A stretch of 64,000 bases of DNA from IMG/VR virus record IMGVR_UViG_3300032523_001510; one strand, given 5' to 3'. The notes beneath the pieces were generated by a model, which worked only from the letters and a program-made list of their open reading frames with translations, had not been told where the DNA came from and ran no database searches. This stretch comes from an uncultured virus (IMG/VR IMGVR_UViG_3300032523_001510). Lineage: Duplodnaviria > Heunggongvirae > Uroviricota > Caudoviricetes. Positions 24,639 to 62,930 of this stretch are shown here, one piece after another. The position numbers and the translations under genes were made by a program. Every line of letters begins with the position of its first letter. Positions within the stretch are counted from its first letter, which is position 1.

Positions 24639-25163
24639 TTAAGAATTATTATGTTTTTTAAAATTTTTATTTATATAAGGTAGATTTTGTTCAAATTTAA
24701 GCTGAACGAAATCAGAGTATCTTCTTTTTAAATCATTGTAGTTTCTCGCAGACCTATACAATTGCTTGAAATGATTTAGAATACAAGTGGTCATGTAATT
24801 GAACGCTTTTCCCTTAGAAGGATCGAATCTATCTACTTTTTCAAAACATATCATGACTCCTTCTTGCACAGCATCATCTTGATCTATTAAATTAAATTTG
24901 GCATATTTAACTATATTTTCTGATAAAGTATAAAAAGCAAATGCTATTTTTTCTTGTGTTTCTTGAAATTTATTATTTGAGATTTTGTATTTTTCTTGAA
25001 TTTCAAGCCAAACTTCTGGTAATTTGTAATTTTTATTTTCATTAAAAGTACAAGTTATTTCGTTTGATATAAAATATAATTGATTTTTTTCTTTTTTTAT
25101 ATTTTGAAAAACGGAAATTAAAATCTCAAATGTTTTATTGTTTAAATATTCCTGAACCATCAA
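24639..25163 (-). CDS. Late-transcription sigma factor, T4 gp55-like
   Basis: YLNNK, DDAVQEGVMICF and RFDPSKGKAFNYMT motifs (sigma region 2 only). Confidence 0.85.
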   Translation of the reverse strand: MMVQEYLNNKTFEILISVFQNIKKEKNQLYFISNEITCTFNENKNYKLPEVWLEIQEKYKISNNKFQETQEKIAFAFYTLSENIVKYAKFNLIDQDDAVQEGVMICFEKVDRFDPSKGKAFNYMTTCILNHFKQLYRSARNYNDLKRRYSDFVQLKFEQNLPYINKNFKKHNNS

Positions 25164-48095: not shown

Positions 48096-48689
48096 TTAAA
48101 AATGTATTTTGTATTTACGCCTAATTAGCTTTATTACTTGTATGGCATCATCCACAGCATTATGCGTTACCTTTTCCTTGATAGAAGCTCTATCCAGACA
48201 TGTTTCCATGTTGGGCAAATGATTGTCTTTTAAATGATCAAAATATAGTATAGCAGGATCTATCACCCTAGATCGAAACGAAATGTTAGACCAATCATTT
48301 TTTTGTATTTTTTCTTGCAAGAACATTAAATCAAATGTTGCGAAGTTTTTACCAGCAACATTTAAGTATATTTTCTCATTATCATCGTTGTAACCGTTTA
48401 CGAAAAGAAAATTACTCAGTCTTGTAAACAATTCTTCTGGATAACAGATGTAAGGCGAATTATTTTCGACTTTGTTCGAAATGTCTAATAATATATTTCT
48501 ACTATGTATCTTAATAGCTTTAGGATCGACACAATAAGGTTCTTTTTTATTTAAATGATAATGAAAAACTGGTAAGTCTTTTATCGGCAAAGGATTCTTC
48601 AAATCATCAAGAACTGCTGCAAATTCTAAAATATCATGATTCTTAGGATCTAATCCGCTTGTTTCAATATCTATAGATGCGTATTTCAT
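48096..48689 (-). CDS. DEDDh 3'-5' exonuclease
   Basis: IDIETSG, GKNFATFD and HNAVDD motifs. Start at MKYAS. Confidence 0.9.
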   Translation of the reverse strand: MKYASIDIETSGLDPKNHDILEFAAVLDDLKNPLPIKDLPVFHYHLNKKEPYCVDPKAIKIHSRNILLDISNKVENNSPYICYPEELFTRLSNFLFVNGYNDDNEKIYLNVAGKNFATFDLMFLQEKIQKNDWSNISFRSRVIDPAILYFDHLKDNHLPNMETCLDRASIKEKVTHNAVDDAIQVIKLIRRKYKIHF

Positions 48690-48737
48690 AGTGACTTCCT
48701 TATCTTGTTGGGCTGTAATAACGAACAAAAATTACTA

Positions 48738-55623: not shown

Positions 55624-55660
55624 ACTATCTCGAACTCAATAATTTTTAAAATAAAATCAC

Positions 55661-56167
55661 TCAAAGTTATTACATTAGGGTTGCAATAATTTTAATTAAA
55701 GCAACAATGTAAATTAATACTTTGAAAACTTTGAATACCGAGATGAAGGCTCTAATCCTTCCATTATTTTATGATTGGCTGCGTTCCCTTGAGTAATTTA
55801 ATGAAAAAACCTTGGAGCGTCTTACCCAGATGAAGTCTTAGTTGTTAAACACAATACTGTACGAGCAGTATTCTTCTCCAATGGTCAAGGTAGTCTAGGA
55901 TAGGAAAAACCACCCGAATCTTTAGTTAAACTTAATTAACCTTATGTTTTTCTAGAGCTATCTTAGATTAGGAGACCATAACAAACGCACCATAATGTTA
56001 GCGTAACTTTCGGTTGTTAACTTAAGTTACTAAAGTTTTTAAGTGAAACAATAGTTTCAAATATTAACTCTTAACTTAAGTAACATAATGCTAATGGAAG
56101 TAACAATTAAGGTATTACTAATTACCTTAATTAAAAATCCATTTACCCTTAAGTCGGGACCTCGGTA
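55661..56167 (+). ncRNA. Candidate large (~430-510 nt) structured non-coding RNA or origin-associated structure
   Basis: Only large ORF-free gap in the window. More than 12 nested complementary segments, including a 55736/56167 closing stem. G-U pairs favour the + strand. Confidence 0.6.
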
Positions 56168-56264
56168 CGTAAAAATAATACTATTTAACTAAAAGTAACT
56201 GTCTATTGTTTTTTATGTAAGTGTTTGTTAGATTTCATTTAACAAATATATTTAGGGAAAATCT

Positions 56265-57569
56265 ATGATTAAGTTCATTTCAGACATAGTTTCGATTAGC
56301 GGTACTTCGAGTACTTTTTATATAAGTCTAGAAAATGATTCGATTGATTTTACAAACTCTGAAACAAGGCAAATTTTGCGTATTTGTTCTTCTGAGGGAG
56401 AATGTAGCATTCCGATAGAGATAAAGGAATTACCGCTGCTTATTGAGGTTCTAAAAGGCACTGTATTATCAAAGCAATCAAAGGTAGTTGCGTGGAACTG
56501 GAAAGACTTCGTTTCTTATGTTTCATTTCATTTTGGGAAGTTAGTTGAATTTCAAGCTGTAGTACTTGATTTAAAGATTATCGAATCGTATTTTTTCATC
56601 AAACAAGAAAAACCAGTTAACTATTTGTCTGCTTTGATTCGTTTCAAGAAATTAAAGACAGATAAAGATTGGGAAAAGTTTTACAATATATATAATTCTG
56701 TTTATTTGCCTTTAATCACTTTAGTAATTCCTACGATGGAAAACACGCCTTTACTTGATTGCGAGCTTAAGGATAGGGTATATGCTCATTATTCCATAAA
56801 CGGACAAGACAATGGCAGAATGCTATGTTCTAACGCAAGGATCAAAGGCTACAACCCTCACACGCTATCAAAAGATCAAAAAGGTAAATATAAACCATGC
56901 GTTCCTTATAATGTATTTTTGAATTTTGATTTTAGAAGCATGGAAGTTGCGGTATTGGCTTATCTGGCTAATGACGAAAAGTTATTAGAATTGATTCAAG
57001 CACCAGATATTTATTCAAGTATATTTGTGGCTATAACAAATAGCGTTGCAGATGACAATTCTAAGATTTTAGCGAAAAAAATATTTTTACCGACTATATA
57101 TGGCATGTCGGCACGGACTCTTGCTGAACAAGCGGATATCCAATTATCTCTTGCCGAACAAATTTGTAGCAATATAAATAAAATATTTTTTAAATCTGTA
57201 AATTATGTCAAAGGCTTCGTGTCTTTGGCTGAATCTCAAGGAACAATAAGTGATTATTTTGGCAAGAGAAGAACATTTACTGAAAATTTCTATAAGGCTC
57301 GCAATTTTTGTATTCAATCACCTGCGTCATTAATTTGTTTAGAAAAATTAGTTCAGTTATGGAAAAAAATACAGCATAAGACTAGAATTTGTTATCATGT
57401 ACATGATGGTTATTATGTATATGCACAAGATGATAATTGGAAAGAAGTCGCTATTGAAGCGAAAAAAGTTCTTGTTAGTGAATCGCAAATATGTCCCGGC
57501 ATGAGATTGAGAGTGGCTTGTCATGGGGGGACTAAATTAAATAACTTGAAGTCACTCGAAAAGCGATGA
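56265..57569 (+). CDS. polA: Short family A DNA polymerase lacking the thumb subdomain
   Basis: Motif A DFRSME, motif B AKKIFLPTIYGM, NFCIQS and motif C HVHD; 434 aa. Confidence 0.85.
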   Translation: MIKFISDIVSISGTSSTFYISLENDSIDFTNSETRQILRICSSEGECSIPIEIKELPLLIEVLKGTVLSKQSKVVAWNWKDFVSYVSFHFGKLVEFQAVVLDLKIIESYFFIKQEKPVNYLSALIRFKKLKTDKDWEKFYNIYNSVYLPLITLVIPTMENTPLLDCELKDRVYAHYSINGQDNGRMLCSNARIKGYNPHTLSKDQKGKYKPCVPYNVFLNFDFRSMEVAVLAYLANDEKLLELIQAPDIYSSIFVAITNSVADDNSKILAKKIFLPTIYGMSARTLAEQADIQLSLAEQICSNINKIFFKSVNYVKGFVSLAESQGTISDYFGKRRTFTENFYKARNFCIQSPASLICLEKLVQLWKKIQHKTRICYHVHDGYYVYAQDDNWKEVAIEAKKVLVSESQICPGMRLRVACHGGTKLNNLKSLEKR

Positions 57570-57573
57570 GTAA

Positions 57574-58137
57574 ATGAAAGAGATATGCAATAATTTTCCA
57601 ATCACATCAGAAGAATATTTTGAATTAGATAAAAAATTTGGCAAACTTTGTTATTACGCAGCACATCAATTAAAAAAGAAAAATTCAAAAAACAATTGCG
57701 TTGAAGATATAGACGATATAAATCAAGAGCTTCAACTTTCTATTATTCGTGCTGGATCTTATTACAAGAGACAGATTTATATTGAAAGTTCACTTGTGTT
57801 GGCCAAGGAACACATCAAGAAGACCGTAAAAAATAAAAAGTTAGTTTTAACTTTGCAAAATTTGTGGAACAACAGGACTCGTCATGGGGCGAATAGACAA
57901 AAATTTGGACCTATTCAAGAAAAGTTATTAGACGAATTGATTAAAAAATATGTTCCCAAAGACATCAGACCAAGTAAAACCGAATCGTTAAAAATTGACA
58001 CAAAGTTTTCGACTTATTGTAAAGCAATTGTTTGGAATGGCCAGAAGAGCATGGGCAAGAAAATTACTAGAGAAAAAGCTATTCGATCAGGTTTGGTTAG
58101 TTTGTCTGAATACGATTATCTTGGTACGAATTTGTAA
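57574..58137 (+). CDS. Hypothetical protein, weakly sigma region 2-like
   Basis: DIDDINQELQLSIIRA...KFSTY resembles sigma-70 region 2 with an insertion. Confidence 0.5.
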   Translation: MKEICNNFPITSEEYFELDKKFGKLCYYAAHQLKKKNSKNNCVEDIDDINQELQLSIIRAGSYYKRQIYIESSLVLAKEHIKKTVKNKKLVLTLQNLWNNRTRHGANRQKFGPIQEKLLDELIKKYVPKDIRPSKTESLKIDTKFSTYCKAIVWNGQKSMGKKITREKAIRSGLVSLSEYDYLGTNL

Positions 58138-58194
58138 CTTCTGATATTGTTCTTCTGCTTAGTTAATGTTATTTCGTAAGTAGGAGAAAGTAAA

Positions 58195-59697
58195 ATGAGT
58201 TTGACACCAGAAGAACAAGCGATAATCGAGTCGTTAACGAATCCAGAAACGCAACAGACGAAGTTTTCATGGGACGATATGTTCCAAAAGAAATTGCTTG
58301 GTATGTTGCTTACTGATAAATACATGTTGATTCAAAGTATCGACAAACTAAAGCCAGAATATTTTTCAAATGAAATACATGTTCTGATATCGAAAATTTT
58401 ATTCGACTACTTCAAAGAAAAGAATTCTATTCCTGATCATTTTATAATGAACACGGAACTCACCTCGAAGATAAAAGACAAAGATAAAACTATTCAGTTG
58501 TATCATTGTGCTGAATTAGGAAGTTTATATAGCTATTATGTTCCCGGACTTGATACGAGAGAATACCTTATCGATAAGGTATTCTACTTTGCTAAAGTAC
58601 AAGCGGTAAAAGTAGCATTTCACAATTGTCTTGAAAAAATGAAAAAGGCACCAGAGGAAGAAAAGACTTGGGCGTATGTTTACGAGCAAATGCGTCAGTC
58701 TATGTTAATCGAGCGATCATATGAACCGGGGCTTGAATACTTTTTAAATATAGATTTGATGTTTGATCGCATGGAAGATCAGTTCGCTGGTAAGGATAGA
58801 TTCACATCTGGATTTCCTTCTATAGATAACAATTTGACTGGAGGTGGCTTATTTCATGGGCAAATAGCTTCGTGGATAGGATTGCCCGGTACTGGCAAGT
58901 CTTTGGCTCTTTCGAAGGCTGCTGTTGCTAATGTTCTTTTAGGCCATAAAGTTTTATATTTAACTATGGAAATGGATGAGATAGGAATAGCAACAAGATT
59001 TACATCTCAATTTACAAAGATTGATATAAATTTATTAAAAGAGAACAGAGATCAAGTTAAGAGTACGATTGAAGAATTTAAAAAGGACAAAGAAAATTCT
59101 AATCTTTTAATTGTAAAGCAATTTCCCGGTGGCATGATCGATGTCAATGGTATTAGAGCTTATCACGCTCAATTGCTTCTTAGAGGTTGGAAGCCAGATT
59201 TAGTTATTGTCGATTATGTAGGAGAAATGAAAGATGATCCGACTGTTAAGAAGTACGAGTCTGCTTATAGAATATTAAGGGATTTAAGAGGTTTTGGAGT
59301 CGAACAAAATCATTGTACATTTACATGTATGCAGCCAAATCAATCAGCAGCAAAATTAGAATTAAACGAATATATTGATGAATCAAACATAGGAACATCG
59401 TTTGATCAATACAAACCACTTGATGCTTTTTGGTCTATTAATCAAAAAAGTTCCGAGAAGGATGCTGAAATAGGAAGGGTATTTGTTATTAAGCACAGAA
59501 ATGGACAATCAAGGTATAATTTCAAAATAGGATTTGATTTATCCATGGGTACATTGGATTTGTATGAAATAACAAATGAAAAATATAAAGAATTATTTAG
59601 CACTTCGAATTCTCATAAAACAGAAGATTTAAATTTCGATCAGTTTAAGGCTGGCGGGAAAAAGAAAAAATCTGAATCATTTGATGACGAAGAATGA
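58195..59697 (+). CDS. dnaB: DnaB/gp41-like replicative helicase
   Basis: GLPGTGKS, LTMEM, IVDY and KHRNG motifs. Confidence 0.93.
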   Translation: MSLTPEEQAIIESLTNPETQQTKFSWDDMFQKKLLGMLLTDKYMLIQSIDKLKPEYFSNEIHVLISKILFDYFKEKNSIPDHFIMNTELTSKIKDKDKTIQLYHCAELGSLYSYYVPGLDTREYLIDKVFYFAKVQAVKVAFHNCLEKMKKAPEEEKTWAYVYEQMRQSMLIERSYEPGLEYFLNIDLMFDRMEDQFAGKDRFTSGFPSIDNNLTGGGLFHGQIASWIGLPGTGKSLALSKAAVANVLLGHKVLYLTMEMDEIGIATRFTSQFTKIDINLLKENRDQVKSTIEEFKKDKENSNLLIVKQFPGGMIDVNGIRAYHAQLLLRGWKPDLVIVDYVGEMKDDPTVKKYESAYRILRDLRGFGVEQNHCTFTCMQPNQSAAKLELNEYIDESNIGTSFDQYKPLDAFWSINQKSSEKDAEIGRVFVIKHRNGQSRYNFKIGFDLSMGTLDLYEITNEKYKELFSTSNSHKTEDLNFDQFKAGGKKKKSESFDDEE

Positions 59698-60281: not shown

Positions 60282-60804
60282 TTTTGAAAATGCAAAGCAT
60301 TATTCCTTTTCAGACCACCAACTCGAACAAAACATATTATTTTGGCTGTGTGCCGAAGATAATGATATTTTGAACGTTGCTAAAAATTTAAATGCATTTT
60401 TAGATAAATGGAATGATAAAGGAAAACTTTCTCCTTTTCAAAGCATAAGAAGCATGGTTGATAAAACAAATGTTCCATTGGAAATTAAAAACTTTGCGAT
60501 AAAAGATCATAACGAAAAAGCTATAGTTTTTATACTCCTTGCTTTTTCTGGAATCAATCTTCGCACTTGTTCGTTTAAAGAATTTTTAAAAGTAAAAGGA
60601 TTGAAAAACAATGTCGTTAAATGTTTTTTAATTCATACAAGACAGCTTTGCGTTGAAGATTATACTTATGAAATAAGTTCGAACAAACCAGAAACAAAAA
60701 AAACAATTAATTCAAAGGAACAAAAATCTAAGGACATCATAGACAACAGAGAAATGTTAGATTTTGATTTAAGTGTATGGAACATTATCAGGAAAAATAA
60801 ATGA
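60274..60804 (+). CDS. Hypothetical protein, possibly degenerate HhH DNA glycosylase-like
   Basis: LEQNILFWLCA...FLKVKGLKNNVVKCFLIHTR pattern. Confidence 0.45.
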   Translation: MADFENAKHYSFSDHQLEQNILFWLCAEDNDILNVAKNLNAFLDKWNDKGKLSPFQSIRSMVDKTNVPLEIKNFAIKDHNEKAIVFILLAFSGINLRTCSFKEFLKVKGLKNNVVKCFLIHTRQLCVEDYTYEISSNKPETKKTINSKEQKSKDIIDNREMLDFDLSVWNIIRKNK

Positions 60805-61529
60805 TAGATGTTAATAGGATTTACAATGAAGATTGTCTTGAAACAATGTCGAGAATGCATGATGGATTTGTTGGATTGACTGTGACGAGTCCTCCATATG
60901 ATAATTTGCGTATTTATAATGGTTATGTTTTTGATTATAAAAAAACAGCGGAAAGTTTGTATAGAGTGACTAAATCTGGAGGTGTCGTTGTTTGGGTTAT
61001 TGCCGATGGAAGTGTAGATGGTGGAGAAACAGGAACTAGCTTTGAACAAGCTCTTTATTTTAAGAATATAGGATTTAAAATTCACGACACTATGATTTAT
61101 GAAAAAACAGGATTCTCAAATCCAAGTTCGACTAGGTATCATCAAGTTTTTGAATATATGTTTGTGTTCAGTAAAGGTTCTCCTAAAACATTCAATCCAA
61201 TAAAAGATAGAGAAAACAAATACAAAGGAGTTCATGGTGGCGAAAGATCTTTTCGTGAAGATTTTGGCATGAGATATAACGTTTGGAAGTACGCTAATGG
61301 TGGAGGCAATACTTCGAAAGACAAAGAAGCGTTTAAACATCCAGCCCCAATGCCAGAAAAACTTGCTAATGATCATATAGTTAGTTGGAGCAACGAAGGC
61401 GATTTAGTCTATGACCCTTTCATGGGAAGTGGAACTACAGCTAAAATGGCCATCCTAAACAAACGTAACTTTATAGGTAGCGAAATATCAAAGGACTATT
61501 GCGATATCGCAGAGAAAAGAATTGGGTAA
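60801..61529 (+). CDS. DNA amino-methyltransferase (N4-C/N6-A, beta class)
   Basis: TSPPY precedes DPFMGSGTT. Confidence 0.95.
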   Translation: MIDVNRIYNEDCLETMSRMHDGFVGLTVTSPPYDNLRIYNGYVFDYKKTAESLYRVTKSGGVVVWVIADGSVDGGETGTSFEQALYFKNIGFKIHDTMIYEKTGFSNPSSTRYHQVFEYMFVFSKGSPKTFNPIKDRENKYKGVHGGERSFREDFGMRYNVWKYANGGGNTSKDKEAFKHPAPMPEKLANDHIVSWSNEGDLVYDPFMGSGTTAKMAILNKRNFIGSEISKDYCDIAEKRIG

Positions 61530-62145
61530 AAATTTATGAAAAATTATGAAGATAGACAAGAAGCAAAAAAAGCAAAATCTGAAAAGTGGATAACAGAATG
61601 TGTTGACTTTTGGATTGATAAAATTGATGAATGTGATCTTGGAACTGATTTTTCTGAAGCAACAACAAATTGCTGGAGATGTGGATACTTAAGAAAACTT
61701 CAAAAATGTCACATCATTCCCAAAAGTCTTGGTGGTGAAGACAAACCAGAAAATATCATTCCACTATGTTTACAATGCCATGATGAAATGCCAGATGTCC
61801 GTGACAAAGAAGAAGTCTTTAAATGGATCAAATCTAGTCATGGAACTATTTATGATACATTTTGGGCGGAAATTTCATTTGAAATGGCAGATTGCAATTT
61901 AGATGATGCTTTTAAAAATGTTGACAATCCAAAGGCTAAAATGGATTTTTTTATTGAAAGAATTAAATTTTATTCGGGAGAAACATCATCTCATTTTGGG
62001 CAATCATCTGGTGGATCTAGAATGAAACCTTCTACAAGAGCATGGGTTATAAAAAAATCTTTTTCTGATACATTTAAAACAAACGAAACTTTATAGGTAG
62101 CGAAATATCAAAAGATTACTGCGATATCGCAGAGAAAAGAATCGG
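61457..62145 (+). repeat. 69-bp imperfect direct repeat (61457-61525 and 62077-62145) flanking the HNH gene
   Basis: 64/69 identical. All differences are synonymous in the methyltransferase frame. Confidence 0.92.
61536..62096 (+). CDS. HNH endonuclease
   Basis: CWRCG...CHIIPKSLGGEDKPENIIPLCLQCH motif. Confidence 0.9.
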   Translation: MKNYEDRQEAKKAKSEKWITECVDFWIDKIDECDLGTDFSEATTNCWRCGYLRKLQKCHIIPKSLGGEDKPENIIPLCLQCHDEMPDVRDKEEVFKWIKSSHGTIYDTFWAEISFEMADCNLDDAFKNVDNPKAKMDFFIERIKFYSGETSSHFGQSSGGSRMKPSTRAWVIKKSFSDTFKTNETL

Positions 62146-62156
62146 AGGCATCACAA

Positions 62157-62930
62157 TTGATAAATAAAATACACAACGAAGATTGCCTCGATACTATGGC
62201 TAGAATGCCAGATGATTTTATCGATTTAACTATAACATCTCCTCCTTATGATAATCTTAGAACATATGATGGATATTCATTTGATTTTGAAAGAACAGCA
62301 AAAGAGTTATATCGAGTAACAAAGCAAGGTGGTGTTTGTGTTTGGGTGGTTGGCGATGCGACAATTAATGGAAGCGAAACTGGAAATAGCTTTAGGCAAG
62401 CCATTGGTTTTTTGAATATAGGATTTAATTTGTTTGACACAATGATATACGCCAAGCCACCAAGAGGTGCAGTCGGAAACAACAAGTCATATTGGCAAAC
62501 ATTTGAATATATGTTTGTTTTATCTAAGAATAAGATAAAAAAAATCAATCTTATATGCGATAGAAAAAACAAAGAGAGTAGAGATGGCGATAAAGGAACT
62601 AAACGGACAAAAAGCGGAGAACTTAAAAATGTAAGTCGTTCTGGATATGGAACGACAGGAAGAAGAACTAATATATGGCAATACAATACTGGAAAAGGAC
62701 ACTCGACAAAAGACAAAATAGCGTTTAATCATCCTGCAATATTTCCAGAGCAACTTGCTAATGATCATGTAGTTAGTTGGAGCGATGAAGGCGATTTGGT
62801 TTATGATCCTTTTGCTGGAAGTGGTACTACTTTAAAAATGGCATTACTCAATAGAAGAAACTTTATCGGCAGTGAAGTTTCTAGTGAGTATTGCCAAATT
62901 GCAAATCAGAGAATTGGAGATTTAAAATGA
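62157..62930 (+). CDS. Second DNA amino-methyltransferase (beta class)
   Basis: TSPPY, HPAIFP and DPFAGSGTT motifs; GGAGG before a TTG start. Confidence 0.95.
   Translation: MINKIHNEDCLDTMARMPDDFIDLTITSPPYDNLRTYDGYSFDFERTAKELYRVTKQGGVCVWVVGDATINGSETGNSFRQAIGFLNIGFNLFDTMIYAKPPRGAVGNNKSYWQTFEYMFVLSKNKIKKINLICDRKNKESRDGDKGTKRTKSGELKNVSRSGYGTTGRRTNIWQYNTGKGHSTKDKIAFNHPAIFPEQLANDHVVSWSDEGDLVYDPFAGSGTTLKMALLNRRNFIGSEVSSEYCQIANQRIGDLK

Follow-up and report, generated by a model that had tools for sequence, protein, structure and literature searches.

The primer RNA II of ColE1 hybridizes persistently at the origin, and DNA polymerase I extends it from its processed 3' end; it has stem-loops, is not known to have a conserved multi-pseudoknot core and is controlled by the antisense RNA I, which overlaps its 5' end. 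SCCmec carries a minimal family-A polymerase (CCPol), a small middle protein (MP) and a helicase (Cch2) beside a non-coding initiation site, and MP is reported to confer single-strand binding and de novo priming on CCPol (PMC7581432). Other large, ornate RNAs are described with their functions left open (PMC12286853, PMC10861870). Here we describe a structured RNA gene of about 425 nt (55743..56167, + strand) in a 64,000-nt stretch of DNA, referred to below as the window, from an uncultured tailed phage (IMG/VR record IMGVR_UViG_3300032523_001510). The RNA is a member of a family that is fixed directly upstream, and on the same strand, of an operon encoding a mini family-A DNA polymerase of about 435 aa, a 187-aa protein and a DnaB helicase in uncultured freshwater phages, some of them huge. 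The gene is defined by covariance-model matches, covariation and contigs from RNA libraries, and the existence, strand, fold and linkage of the RNA are near certain. The RNA probably helps these phages to start or control DNA replication, for which ColE1 RNA II with DNA polymerase I serves as the working analogy.

The RNA lies within the longest stretch of the window that is free of open reading frames (ORFs), 641 nt at 55624-56264 compared with 388 nt for the runner-up when ORFs of at least 90 aa are counted, which bears out the original prediction, made from this DNA alone, that the gap is the only long one. Folded as RNA, the + strand of the gap reaches -145.9 kcal/mol compared with -114.2 ± 5.2 kcal/mol for 20 dinucleotide shuffles (z -6.1), and the - strand reaches -141.8 kcal/mol (z -3.7), so that both strands fold better than shuffled sequence and the + strand exceeds the - strand. 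The complementary words that had been read in the gap were all found at their positions. An Infernal comparison with Rfam 15, which took in group I and group II introns, RNase P, transfer-messenger RNA (tmRNA), riboswitches, GOLLD, ROOL, HEARO and OLE, matched no known family at the gathering score in the whole window or in 20 related loci, and at E values up to 10 gave only a tRNA-like T-arm fragment (19.9 bits) and two chance matches, none credible in the gap. ARAGORN detected no tRNA or tmRNA gene in the window; together with the Rfam result, this agrees with the earlier statement that hallmarks of tRNA, tmRNA, RNase P and introns are absent. A blastn comparison of the gap with 50,697 phage records gave no match.

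A MAFFT alignment of relatives shows conserved blocks with compensatory changes, and covariation upstream of homologous polA genes supports most of the pairs first proposed. In alignment A5, fitted with a core covariance model of 108 positions (R1), 96.6% of cells are paired compared with 76.4% in shuffles and 31-45% in slid controls, and two-sided changes occur in 19 of 23 pairs. Alignment A7 consists of 16 full-length members aligned with MAFFT only, with no covariance-model fitting; across nine helices 89.6% of its cells are paired, against 74.8% in shuffles and 32-46% in slid controls, and 33 of 47 pairs show two-sided changes. As the members of A7 share kinship, its shuffle counts are not to be read as probabilities. 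As judged from this comparative sequence evidence, the RNA is composed of helices Pa, Pc, Pd, Pf, Pg and Ph and a 3' domain, with the fold locked by the long-range pairing LR1, by pseudoknot PK2 crossing Pg, and by the long-range pairings LR2 and LR3. All features of the RNA are given on the + strand.

The 5' domain (55743-55990) begins with hairpin Pa (55745..55761; GAAGG 55745 with CCTTC 55757, loop CTCTAAT), in which two-sided changes are seen in five of five pairs. It is followed by a local stem also seen in relatives (CATTA 55762 with TAATG 55799; 55762-66/55799-803), whose loop holds TGCGTT. This word (55780-85) pairs with AACGCA at 55984-89 to form the pseudoknot LR1 (55780..55989). A longest-helix test of LR1 over wide windows was uninformative, as helices of 5-7 bp arise by chance. 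When the test was restricted by register, 21 of 25 sequences placed their best helix in this register, in about ten sequence versions, and the summed length of 140 compares with 115.4 ± 4.4 in shuffles, none of 300 shuffles reaching 140. The conserved core (55803..55904), matched in the window at 66.7 and 72 bits by covariance models R1 and R2, respectively, contains PK2, the helix GGAG/CTCC, a hairpin CGTC/GATG, the invariant strand GTCTTAGTTG (55835-44) and the hairpin AATACTG/CAGTATT. PK2 (55809..55891) joins ACCTT 55809-13 to AAGGT 55887-91 and covaries, ACCU/AGGU being replaced by ACUU/AAGU in 5 of 16 sequences. Relatives support the pairing of (TT)GGAG 55814 with CTCC(AA) 55876 and of AATACTG 55853 with CAGTATT 55866 around the loop TACGAG. 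Helix Pg (55881..55979; ATGGTC 55881-86 with GACCAT 55974-79) crosses PK2 and encloses Ph; its strands, as read from the alignments, vary yet remain complementary (GCAGUA/UACUGC, GCAACA/UGUUGC, CCAGC/GCUGG and others), and the pair, at first offered only as a possible pseudoknot, is real by sequence comparison. The 13-bp helix Ph, formed by TAGTCTAGGATAG at 55891-903 and CTATCTTAGATTA at 55958-70, has two-sided changes in all eight of its eight core pairs.

Two further pairings tie the 5' domain to the 3' domain and tail (55990-56167). LR2 (55913..56158) is a pseudoknot of CCCGA 55913-17 with TCGGG 56154-58, for which 92.7% of cells are paired in the MAFFT-only alignment; variants include GCUGAC/GUCAGC, GCCGAC/GUCGGC and GCAGA/UCUGC, and more were read by eye in loci L029, L034 and L084. 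LR3 (55862..56164) pairs the loop CGAG 55862-65 with CTCG 56161-64 of the tail. All 64 of its 64 cells are paired in A7, where the variable pair is AU in nine members and GC in seven, its partners are matched in 24 of 24 sequences (CGAG/CUCG, CGGG/CCCG or CAAG/CUUG), and one switch falls inside a single clade (L047 compared with L031-33). In the fold so defined, two loops that lie far apart in the 5' domain are fastened by the RNA's own 3' tail (AAGTCGGG..CTCG). The 3' domain also contains a perfect 10-bp hairpin, AATTAAGGTA/TACCTTAATT (56105..56132). For this hairpin and for the GAAAAAC/GTTTTTC stem, relatives show hairpins at the same places that differ in sequence.

Comparison with relatives divides the pairs of the original prediction. 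GAAGG/CCTTC, TGCGTT/AACGCA, TTGGAG/CTCCAA, AATACTG/CAGTATT and the 13-bp stem are supported, whereas three other pairs are not. In place of CATTAT 55762/ATAATG 55992, relatives show the local stem that in the window is CATTA 55762/TAATG 55799, and in place of CCTTGA 55787/TCAAGG 55885, the conserved partner of AAGGT 55887-91 is ACCTT 55809-13. The helix that had been taken to close the whole domain, TACCGAG 55736/CTCGGTA 56161, is the weakest, paired in only 68.8% of cells with one pair showing a two-sided change and without real covariation, and is probably wrong, the tail CTCG (56161-4) pairing instead with the loop CGAG (55862-5). The first hairpin of the gap (55661..55725; TCAAAGT/ACTTTGA, TTACATT/AATGTAA and GTTGC/GCAAC), present in the minimum free energy fold, is kept only in relatives that are 98-99% identical, other clades having unrelated hairpins there. 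This upstream hairpin lies outside the conserved family and may be a terminator or insulator of the upstream gene.

The pairing cells contain 47 G-U against 15 A-C combinations when read on the + strand, and a C>T variant gives U-G at 55739, both in agreement with the polA (+) strand and with the wobble evidence first cited for it. A promoter-like sequence with a 5' leader motif is found at 55714..55742 (+; ACTTTGAAAACTTTGAATACCGAG, -10-like TTTGAATA), supported by boxes in relatives and by contig starts. In several clades a -10-like box, TATAAT, TACAAT or TATAAATA, lies 5-8 nt ahead of the conserved 5' edge, and RNA-library contigs from two studies start at 55740 and 55741. We infer from these boxes and contig starts that the RNA begins near 55740-55743 from its own promoter at the 5' edge. 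The 5' word ACYGAG (ACTGAG type) is conserved, shows no covariation and does not follow the tail; it may be part of the promoter or start region, or an alternative partner of the tail. A leader peptide starting from ATG 55743 in Pa was considered and rejected, as four of nine hairpin-carrying relatives have no ATG and the frame lengths otherwise differ.

Lake metatranscriptome assemblies contain contigs over the 5' domain in four of four runs from four studies (55690-56003, 55740-55894, 55741-55972 and 55750-55900), and pieces of polA or the next gene in three of the four; from contigs neither the ends nor the strand nor the level of a transcript can be read, and some contigs may stem from carried-over DNA. 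None of the contigs in the four lake runs covers 56175-56249, which does not count as evidence for separate transcripts; joints or circular forms were not seen among them. Contigs of run X16 match up to 55981 and 56174 and then continue into unlike sequence (loose ends of 108 and 144 letters), pointing to co-occurring strains whose sequence differs within or beyond the RNA region.

Between the RNA and polA, a consensus scan gives a sigma-70-like promoter match (TTGTTA, 16 nt, TATATT; 9/12) at 56225..56252 (+); sigma-70-like sites in the region are no commoner than in shuffles. In relatives, -10-like boxes are found directly after the RNA tail. An AT-rich conserved block lies 5-25 nt past the tail in the window (56168-56200) and in L010, L018, L024, L046 and others, with GATTGTAAATAAAAATT and AATTTAAGAYAAA as examples and a TATAAT- or TGTAAT-like box common among them. 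This block may serve as the promoter of polA or as an unwinding element, or the RNA may extend into it at its 3' end.

The distribution of the family was followed from both the protein and the RNA. A profile search of IMG/VR with the polymerase located at least 139 places that encode a relative, and 80 of these were retained. In 44 of 75 loci the polymerase gene is directly preceded by a gap of at least 400 nt in which no ORF reaches 100 aa, the smaller gaps in part reflecting ORFs called spuriously over the RNA. For the counts that follow, probable duplicate loci with identical statistics were dropped (L007-9, L011-13, L016, L019-21, L025-26, L030, L037, L040-41, L045, L048-50, L053-54, L056, L059-60, L062-63, L065-66, L072, L077 and L083). 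Similarity of the upstream regions in sequence extends to clades whose polymerases share only about 40% identity. R1 matched 21 of 55 sources at E values up to 1, 17 of them at 2e-15 or better, and all of these matches lie on the polymerase strand upstream of the polymerase gene, with one in the window (55803-55904). R2 matched 24 of 51 sources at 2.6e-4 or better, namely 21 of 48 loci retrieved through the polymerase together with the window, L092 and L093, and its matches include diverged forms without one hairpin (L027, L043, L044, L052, L047 and L031-33). With filters off, L078 is added (E 1.9e-4), giving 22 of 48. The GC-rich loci L029, L034 and L084 carry diverged copies recognizable by eye, with matching LR2 and LR3 partners, indicating that R2 underestimates the spread. 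R2 also gave no match in the records behind L034, L036, L072, L015 and L069, a negative that carries little weight, given the copy seen by eye in L034.

Searching from the RNA side, a motif pattern found 74 IMG/VR loci, of which 28 are R1 matches, and in 28 of these 28 the polymerase ORF lies 270-430 nt downstream on the same strand. The link between the RNA and the small polymerase gene, as first suggested, is therefore tight and specific. One copy of the RNA is present in the window, one in G007 and one in G009. A pattern scan of bacterial and archaeal genomes gave at least 120 matches, and among the 80 that were retrieved none was an R2 match.

The left flank of the RNA is variable. A mosaic breakpoint is seen near 55640 (L003 and L005 at 2360-2380), with an unrelated upstream gene on one side and RNA and polA 98-99% identical on the other, so that the flank has been exchanged by recombination exactly at the edge of the RNA module. 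The exchange of the upstream gene, with identity starting from about 55640, indicates that the RNA element travels with the polymerase side. In L018, L027, L031, L035, L042 and L044 the upstream gene is divergent (- strand) and conserved (235-294 aa) and ends 40-150 nt before the RNA; its presence in many clades suggests that the RNA promoter lies in a divergent intergenic region at a strand switch. Pfam gave no match for the genes upstream of the RNA in ten loci.

The first gene downstream encodes the mini family-A DNA polymerase of 434 aa (56265..57569, +), identified with PF00476, an AlphaFold2 (AF2) model and Foldseek. The PF00476 match (84.2 bits, cut-off 34.3) covers residues 168-424 only. 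Profile matches to Bst, Taq and Klenow structures in the PDB likewise cover only residues 169-424 (Bst Pol I, E 4e-26), which align to residues 303-574 of the Bst chain, so that the preceding 168 residues stand for about 300. The AF2 model (predicted local distance difference test, pLDDT, 94.1) shows an RNase-H-like N-terminal domain of exonuclease type followed by palm and fingers, and Foldseek aligns it with the entire large fragments of Pol nu, Bst and Klenow. Only two helices (120-131 and 136-159) occupy the thumb position, short of a full thumb subdomain. As far as the model goes, the description of the enzyme as thumb-less is thus essentially right, most of the thumb being missing. Among the matches listed are 56 polymerase homologues of 299-483 aa with 30-67% identity. 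The steric-gate Glu and the motifs of a DNA-templated enzyme are retained in the alignment, given residue equivalences that we partly assume. The exonuclease-like domain has no obvious DxE word, suggesting that proofreading may come in trans. A separate exonuclease-subunit gene (RNase_T; phrog_192) is located at 48096-48728 (-), 7.5 kb from the polymerase. Family scans found no primase family among the window ORFs that they covered.

The polymerase gene is followed by the gene for the 187-aa protein (57574..58137, +), an arrangement found in 50 of 50 loci and direct in 49. More than 828 homologues of this protein were found, mostly with 60-75% identity, compared with 35-45% for the polymerase in the same phages. 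Its AF2 model (pLDDT 83.7) is all-helical. Searches of Pfam, PHROG and NCBIfam gave no family match and no sigma family, and Foldseek gave no match at E 0.001 or better. In a wide VIA comparison, about 20 of the top 50 rows for the model are sigma domain 2, with 70-89 residues aligned at Z 6.0-8.0, which falls below the safe level for helical proteins. The fold thus weakly resembles sigma domain 2, and the earlier description of the gene as sigma-like draws weak support from the model and none from sequence families. A gp55-like late sigma gene (Sigma70_r2; phrog_234) is present elsewhere in the window at 24639-25163 (-), so that the phage would own two minimal sigma-type proteins if the 187-aa protein were sigma-like. 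The 187-aa protein is by itself a strong candidate for structural and biochemical study. The third gene encodes a DnaB-type replicative helicase of 500 aa (58195..59697, +; PF03796, 39 bits; phrog_19, 181 bits).

Just downstream of the replication operon, at 60801-62930, two N6/N4 DNA methylase genes flank an HNH endonuclease gene, and these are followed by a GNAT gene and a dCMP deaminase gene. The window as a whole is part of a large tailed phage with T4-like sheath, tube and baseplate genes, and it also encodes the gp55-like late sigma, ribonucleotide reductase, an SbcCD-like pair and many glycosyltransferases. Its nearest record is G001, with 99% identity across the region.

The most likely single reading of the RNA, which we hold tentatively, is that of an origin-linked replication-initiation RNA. 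The module would lie at or beside the phage replication origin, and the RNA would act there in cis to start or gate DNA replication. In one variant the thumb-poor polymerase would receive the 3' end of the RNA, which would then be a structured pre-primer or a transcript that activates the origin; in another the RNA would be a partner by which the polymerase, the 187-aa pair and DnaB are brought into position. Besides the fold, the linkage, the RNA-library contigs and the -10-like boxes described above, the gene content (polymerase and DnaB, with no primase family among the scanned ORFs) and the GC skew minima of the window, G002, G003 and G009 count for this reading. The cumulative skew of the window has its minimum at 54-56 kb. 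The global minimum falls at the locus in two of six long relatives. In G002 (532 kb, rated 100% complete) it lies at 510-512 kb, with the start of the polymerase locus at about 512.9 kb; the skew there follows the side of the locus (0.04) and not gene orientation (0.00), the sides having been picked from the curve itself. In G003 (343 kb) the global minimum lies at 78-80 kb and polA at 78.3 kb. A local minimum in G009 coincides with the RNA and is slightly shallower than the global one (side effect 0.039).

Several observations weigh against an origin-linked role. In G007 a 310-kb arm of positive skew starts at the RNA and is fully explained by gene orientation (side effect 0.006), G004 shows only a change of skew slope, and the global minimum of G008 is 40 kb away. 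The module thus coincides with a predicted origin in part of the genomes, a placement that cannot be demonstrated for the rest. The RNA was found by R2 in only 21 of the 48 loci retrieved through the polymerase. In LR756511.1, the one GenBank phage with the 187-aa gene (595 kb, uncultured), the polymerase and 187-aa pair is present, a coding gene abuts the polymerase and R2 gives no match. The contigs may derive in part from DNA carried over into the RNA libraries. The compact, multiply knotted fold is more typical of ribozymes, riboswitches and ribonucleoprotein (RNP) scaffolds than of a primer that hybridizes to DNA. As a separate observation on the LR756511.1 locus (L281), the abutting gene at 1465-2649, where the RNA would lie, is a 395-aa ORF whose C-terminus (…IHDSIL…) resembles polymerase motif C by eye and which has no match in Pfam.

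A cis-regulatory leader comes next after the origin-linked reading but appears unlikely. The RNA would then be the 5' untranslated region of a polA-orf187-dnaB message and would sense a metabolite such as a nucleotide or a protein such as the polymerase, and capture or release of the 3' tail (LR2 and LR3 against the ACTGAG word) would set read-through or translation of the replication genes. Its position directly upstream on the same strand, with no intrinsic terminator found between the RNA and polA, counts for a leader, and a switch is conceivable in that the tail can pair with either of two partners, the ACGAG loop and the 5' ACYGAG word, which is conserved. In L031-L033, moreover, the 5' word ACUGAGAU has its complement AUCUCAGU right before polA. 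However, about 425 nt with four long-range pairings is far above known leader size, and the distance from the RNA tail to the ATG of polA varies from 38 to 227 nt across loci (2 nt in one ORF call). The -10-like boxes and the promoter match between the RNA and polA also speak against a common message, as does the lack of covariation between the ACYGAG word and the tail; that no RNA contig bridging the RNA and polA was seen is a weak further point against it.

The RNA could instead be a stable, non-primer RNP partner of the polymerase, the 187-aa protein or both, serving as a scaffold or clamp for the missing thumb, as a template or as a guide, which we consider unlikely. The OapA gene lies next to OLE RNA. 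The strict gene neighbourhood of the phage RNA, a polymerase model without most of the thumb, and a size and knotting typical of RNP or catalytic RNAs are all in keeping with such a partnership. There are precedents in that OapA is reported as a protein partner of OLE RNA (PMC3413148) and that retron and DRT RNAs adjoin their polymerases. The LR756511.1 phage nevertheless retains the protein pair with no detectable RNA at the site, and the polymerase retains the steric-gate Glu and DNA-templated-enzyme motifs.

A more elaborate form of the origin-linked reading, which we regard as doubtful, joins the RNA, the thumb-poor polymerase, the sigma-2-like protein and DnaB into a primase-free, self-contained origin machine. 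After transcription at the origin the RNA would take up its knotted fold, and its 3' tail with the AT-rich, -10-like DNA just beyond the tail would make an R-loop. With the displaced strand held by the sigma-2-like protein, the polymerase would lengthen the RNA from its 3' end, and DnaB would be loaded where the DNA has opened. If this is true, huge phages would start replication in a new way, by a counterpart of ColE1 priming that the phage encodes and that proteins assist.

It is improbable that the RNA is a trans-acting or self-processing RNA unrelated to replication, such as an ornate RNA of the GOLLD/ROOL type or an operon-processing ribozyme, with its place before polA reflecting shared early expression only. 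Its phage origin and its complexity, which is like that of ornate RNAs reported to form RNA-only assemblies (PMC12286853), favor this view, but no ribozyme or ornate RNA was matched in Rfam, and the place of the RNA beside one gene pair is invariant across clades in which the upstream gene has been exchanged. An element that acts only as DNA and has no functional RNA, whether an origin or operator array or hairpins of single-stranded DNA, would fit the skew switch and the AT-rich intergenic region but is highly improbable given the compensatory changes across 60-300 nt, crossing pairings included, the excess of G-U over A-C cells on one strand (47 to 15) and the presence of contigs in RNA libraries.

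No description of the RNA or of a thumb-less phage PolA was found in full-text literature searches, with subscription journals outside their coverage, and no cultured carrier was found among the 50,697 phage records. The original prediction of an undescribed large non-coding RNA holds in that a large structured RNA is present which matches no catalogued family, and the family is new to the literature as far as this is searchable. It would constitute a new class of large, multiply knotted RNA with a complexity comparable to that of ribozymes and ornate RNAs. Unlike GOLLD or ROOL, it has precise genetic partners, a thumb-less minimal polymerase, a very conserved protein and a helicase, so that co-expression of the RNA with two or three proteins would put its function to a direct test. 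If the RNA primes or licenses replication, it would explain how DNA synthesis starts in a broad group of uncultured large and huge freshwater phages, and it would join ColE1 as a second natural example in which a structured RNA feeds a polymerase of family A. As a regulator it would still exceed every known leader of a replication operon in size.

T4 gp55-type minimal sigma factors are helical phage proteins of a size class of about 185 aa. The 187-aa protein is like them in being helical and of that size, gives VIA matches to sigma domain 2 of many sigma factors at Z 6-8, a level not safe for helical proteins, and is unlike them in having no sequence-family match and in being encoded in a window that already has a gp55-like gene. 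The order of polymerase, small protein and helicase is that of CCPol-MP-Cch2, with the 187-aa protein likened to MP by gene order alone; CCPol is described as lacking both exonuclease domains, whereas an exonuclease-like fold is retained in the model of the phage enzyme, Cch2 unwinds in the 3'-to-5' direction, whereas the phage helicase is of DnaB type, and a structured RNA is not described for the SCCmec system (PMC7581432). A structured RNA gene directly 5' of a polymerase gene is shared with retron msr-msd, DRT non-coding RNAs and telomerase RNA. Those serve reverse transcriptases, whereas the enzyme encoded behind the present RNA is a DNA polymerase of family A within the replication operon of a phage, and no part of the RNA was recognized as a template. 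Like GOLLD, ROOL, OLE and raiA, which are partly phage-borne, the RNA is large, highly structured and found by comparative genomics; unlike them, it gives no covariance-model match and has a very strict, different gene context. With ColE1 RNA II, which is plasmid-borne and used by the host Pol I, the differences are the adjacent polymerase gene and the four long-range pairings. For an antisense regulator like RNA I, Rfam gave no match in the region, and the weak promoter matches on the - strand are no commoner than in shuffles. The likeness to RNA II is that of a structured RNA of about 430-550 nt that is linked to a polymerase of family A, would start from a promoter of its own and take part in replication, and may sit at an origin, as the skew minima suggest for some genomes.

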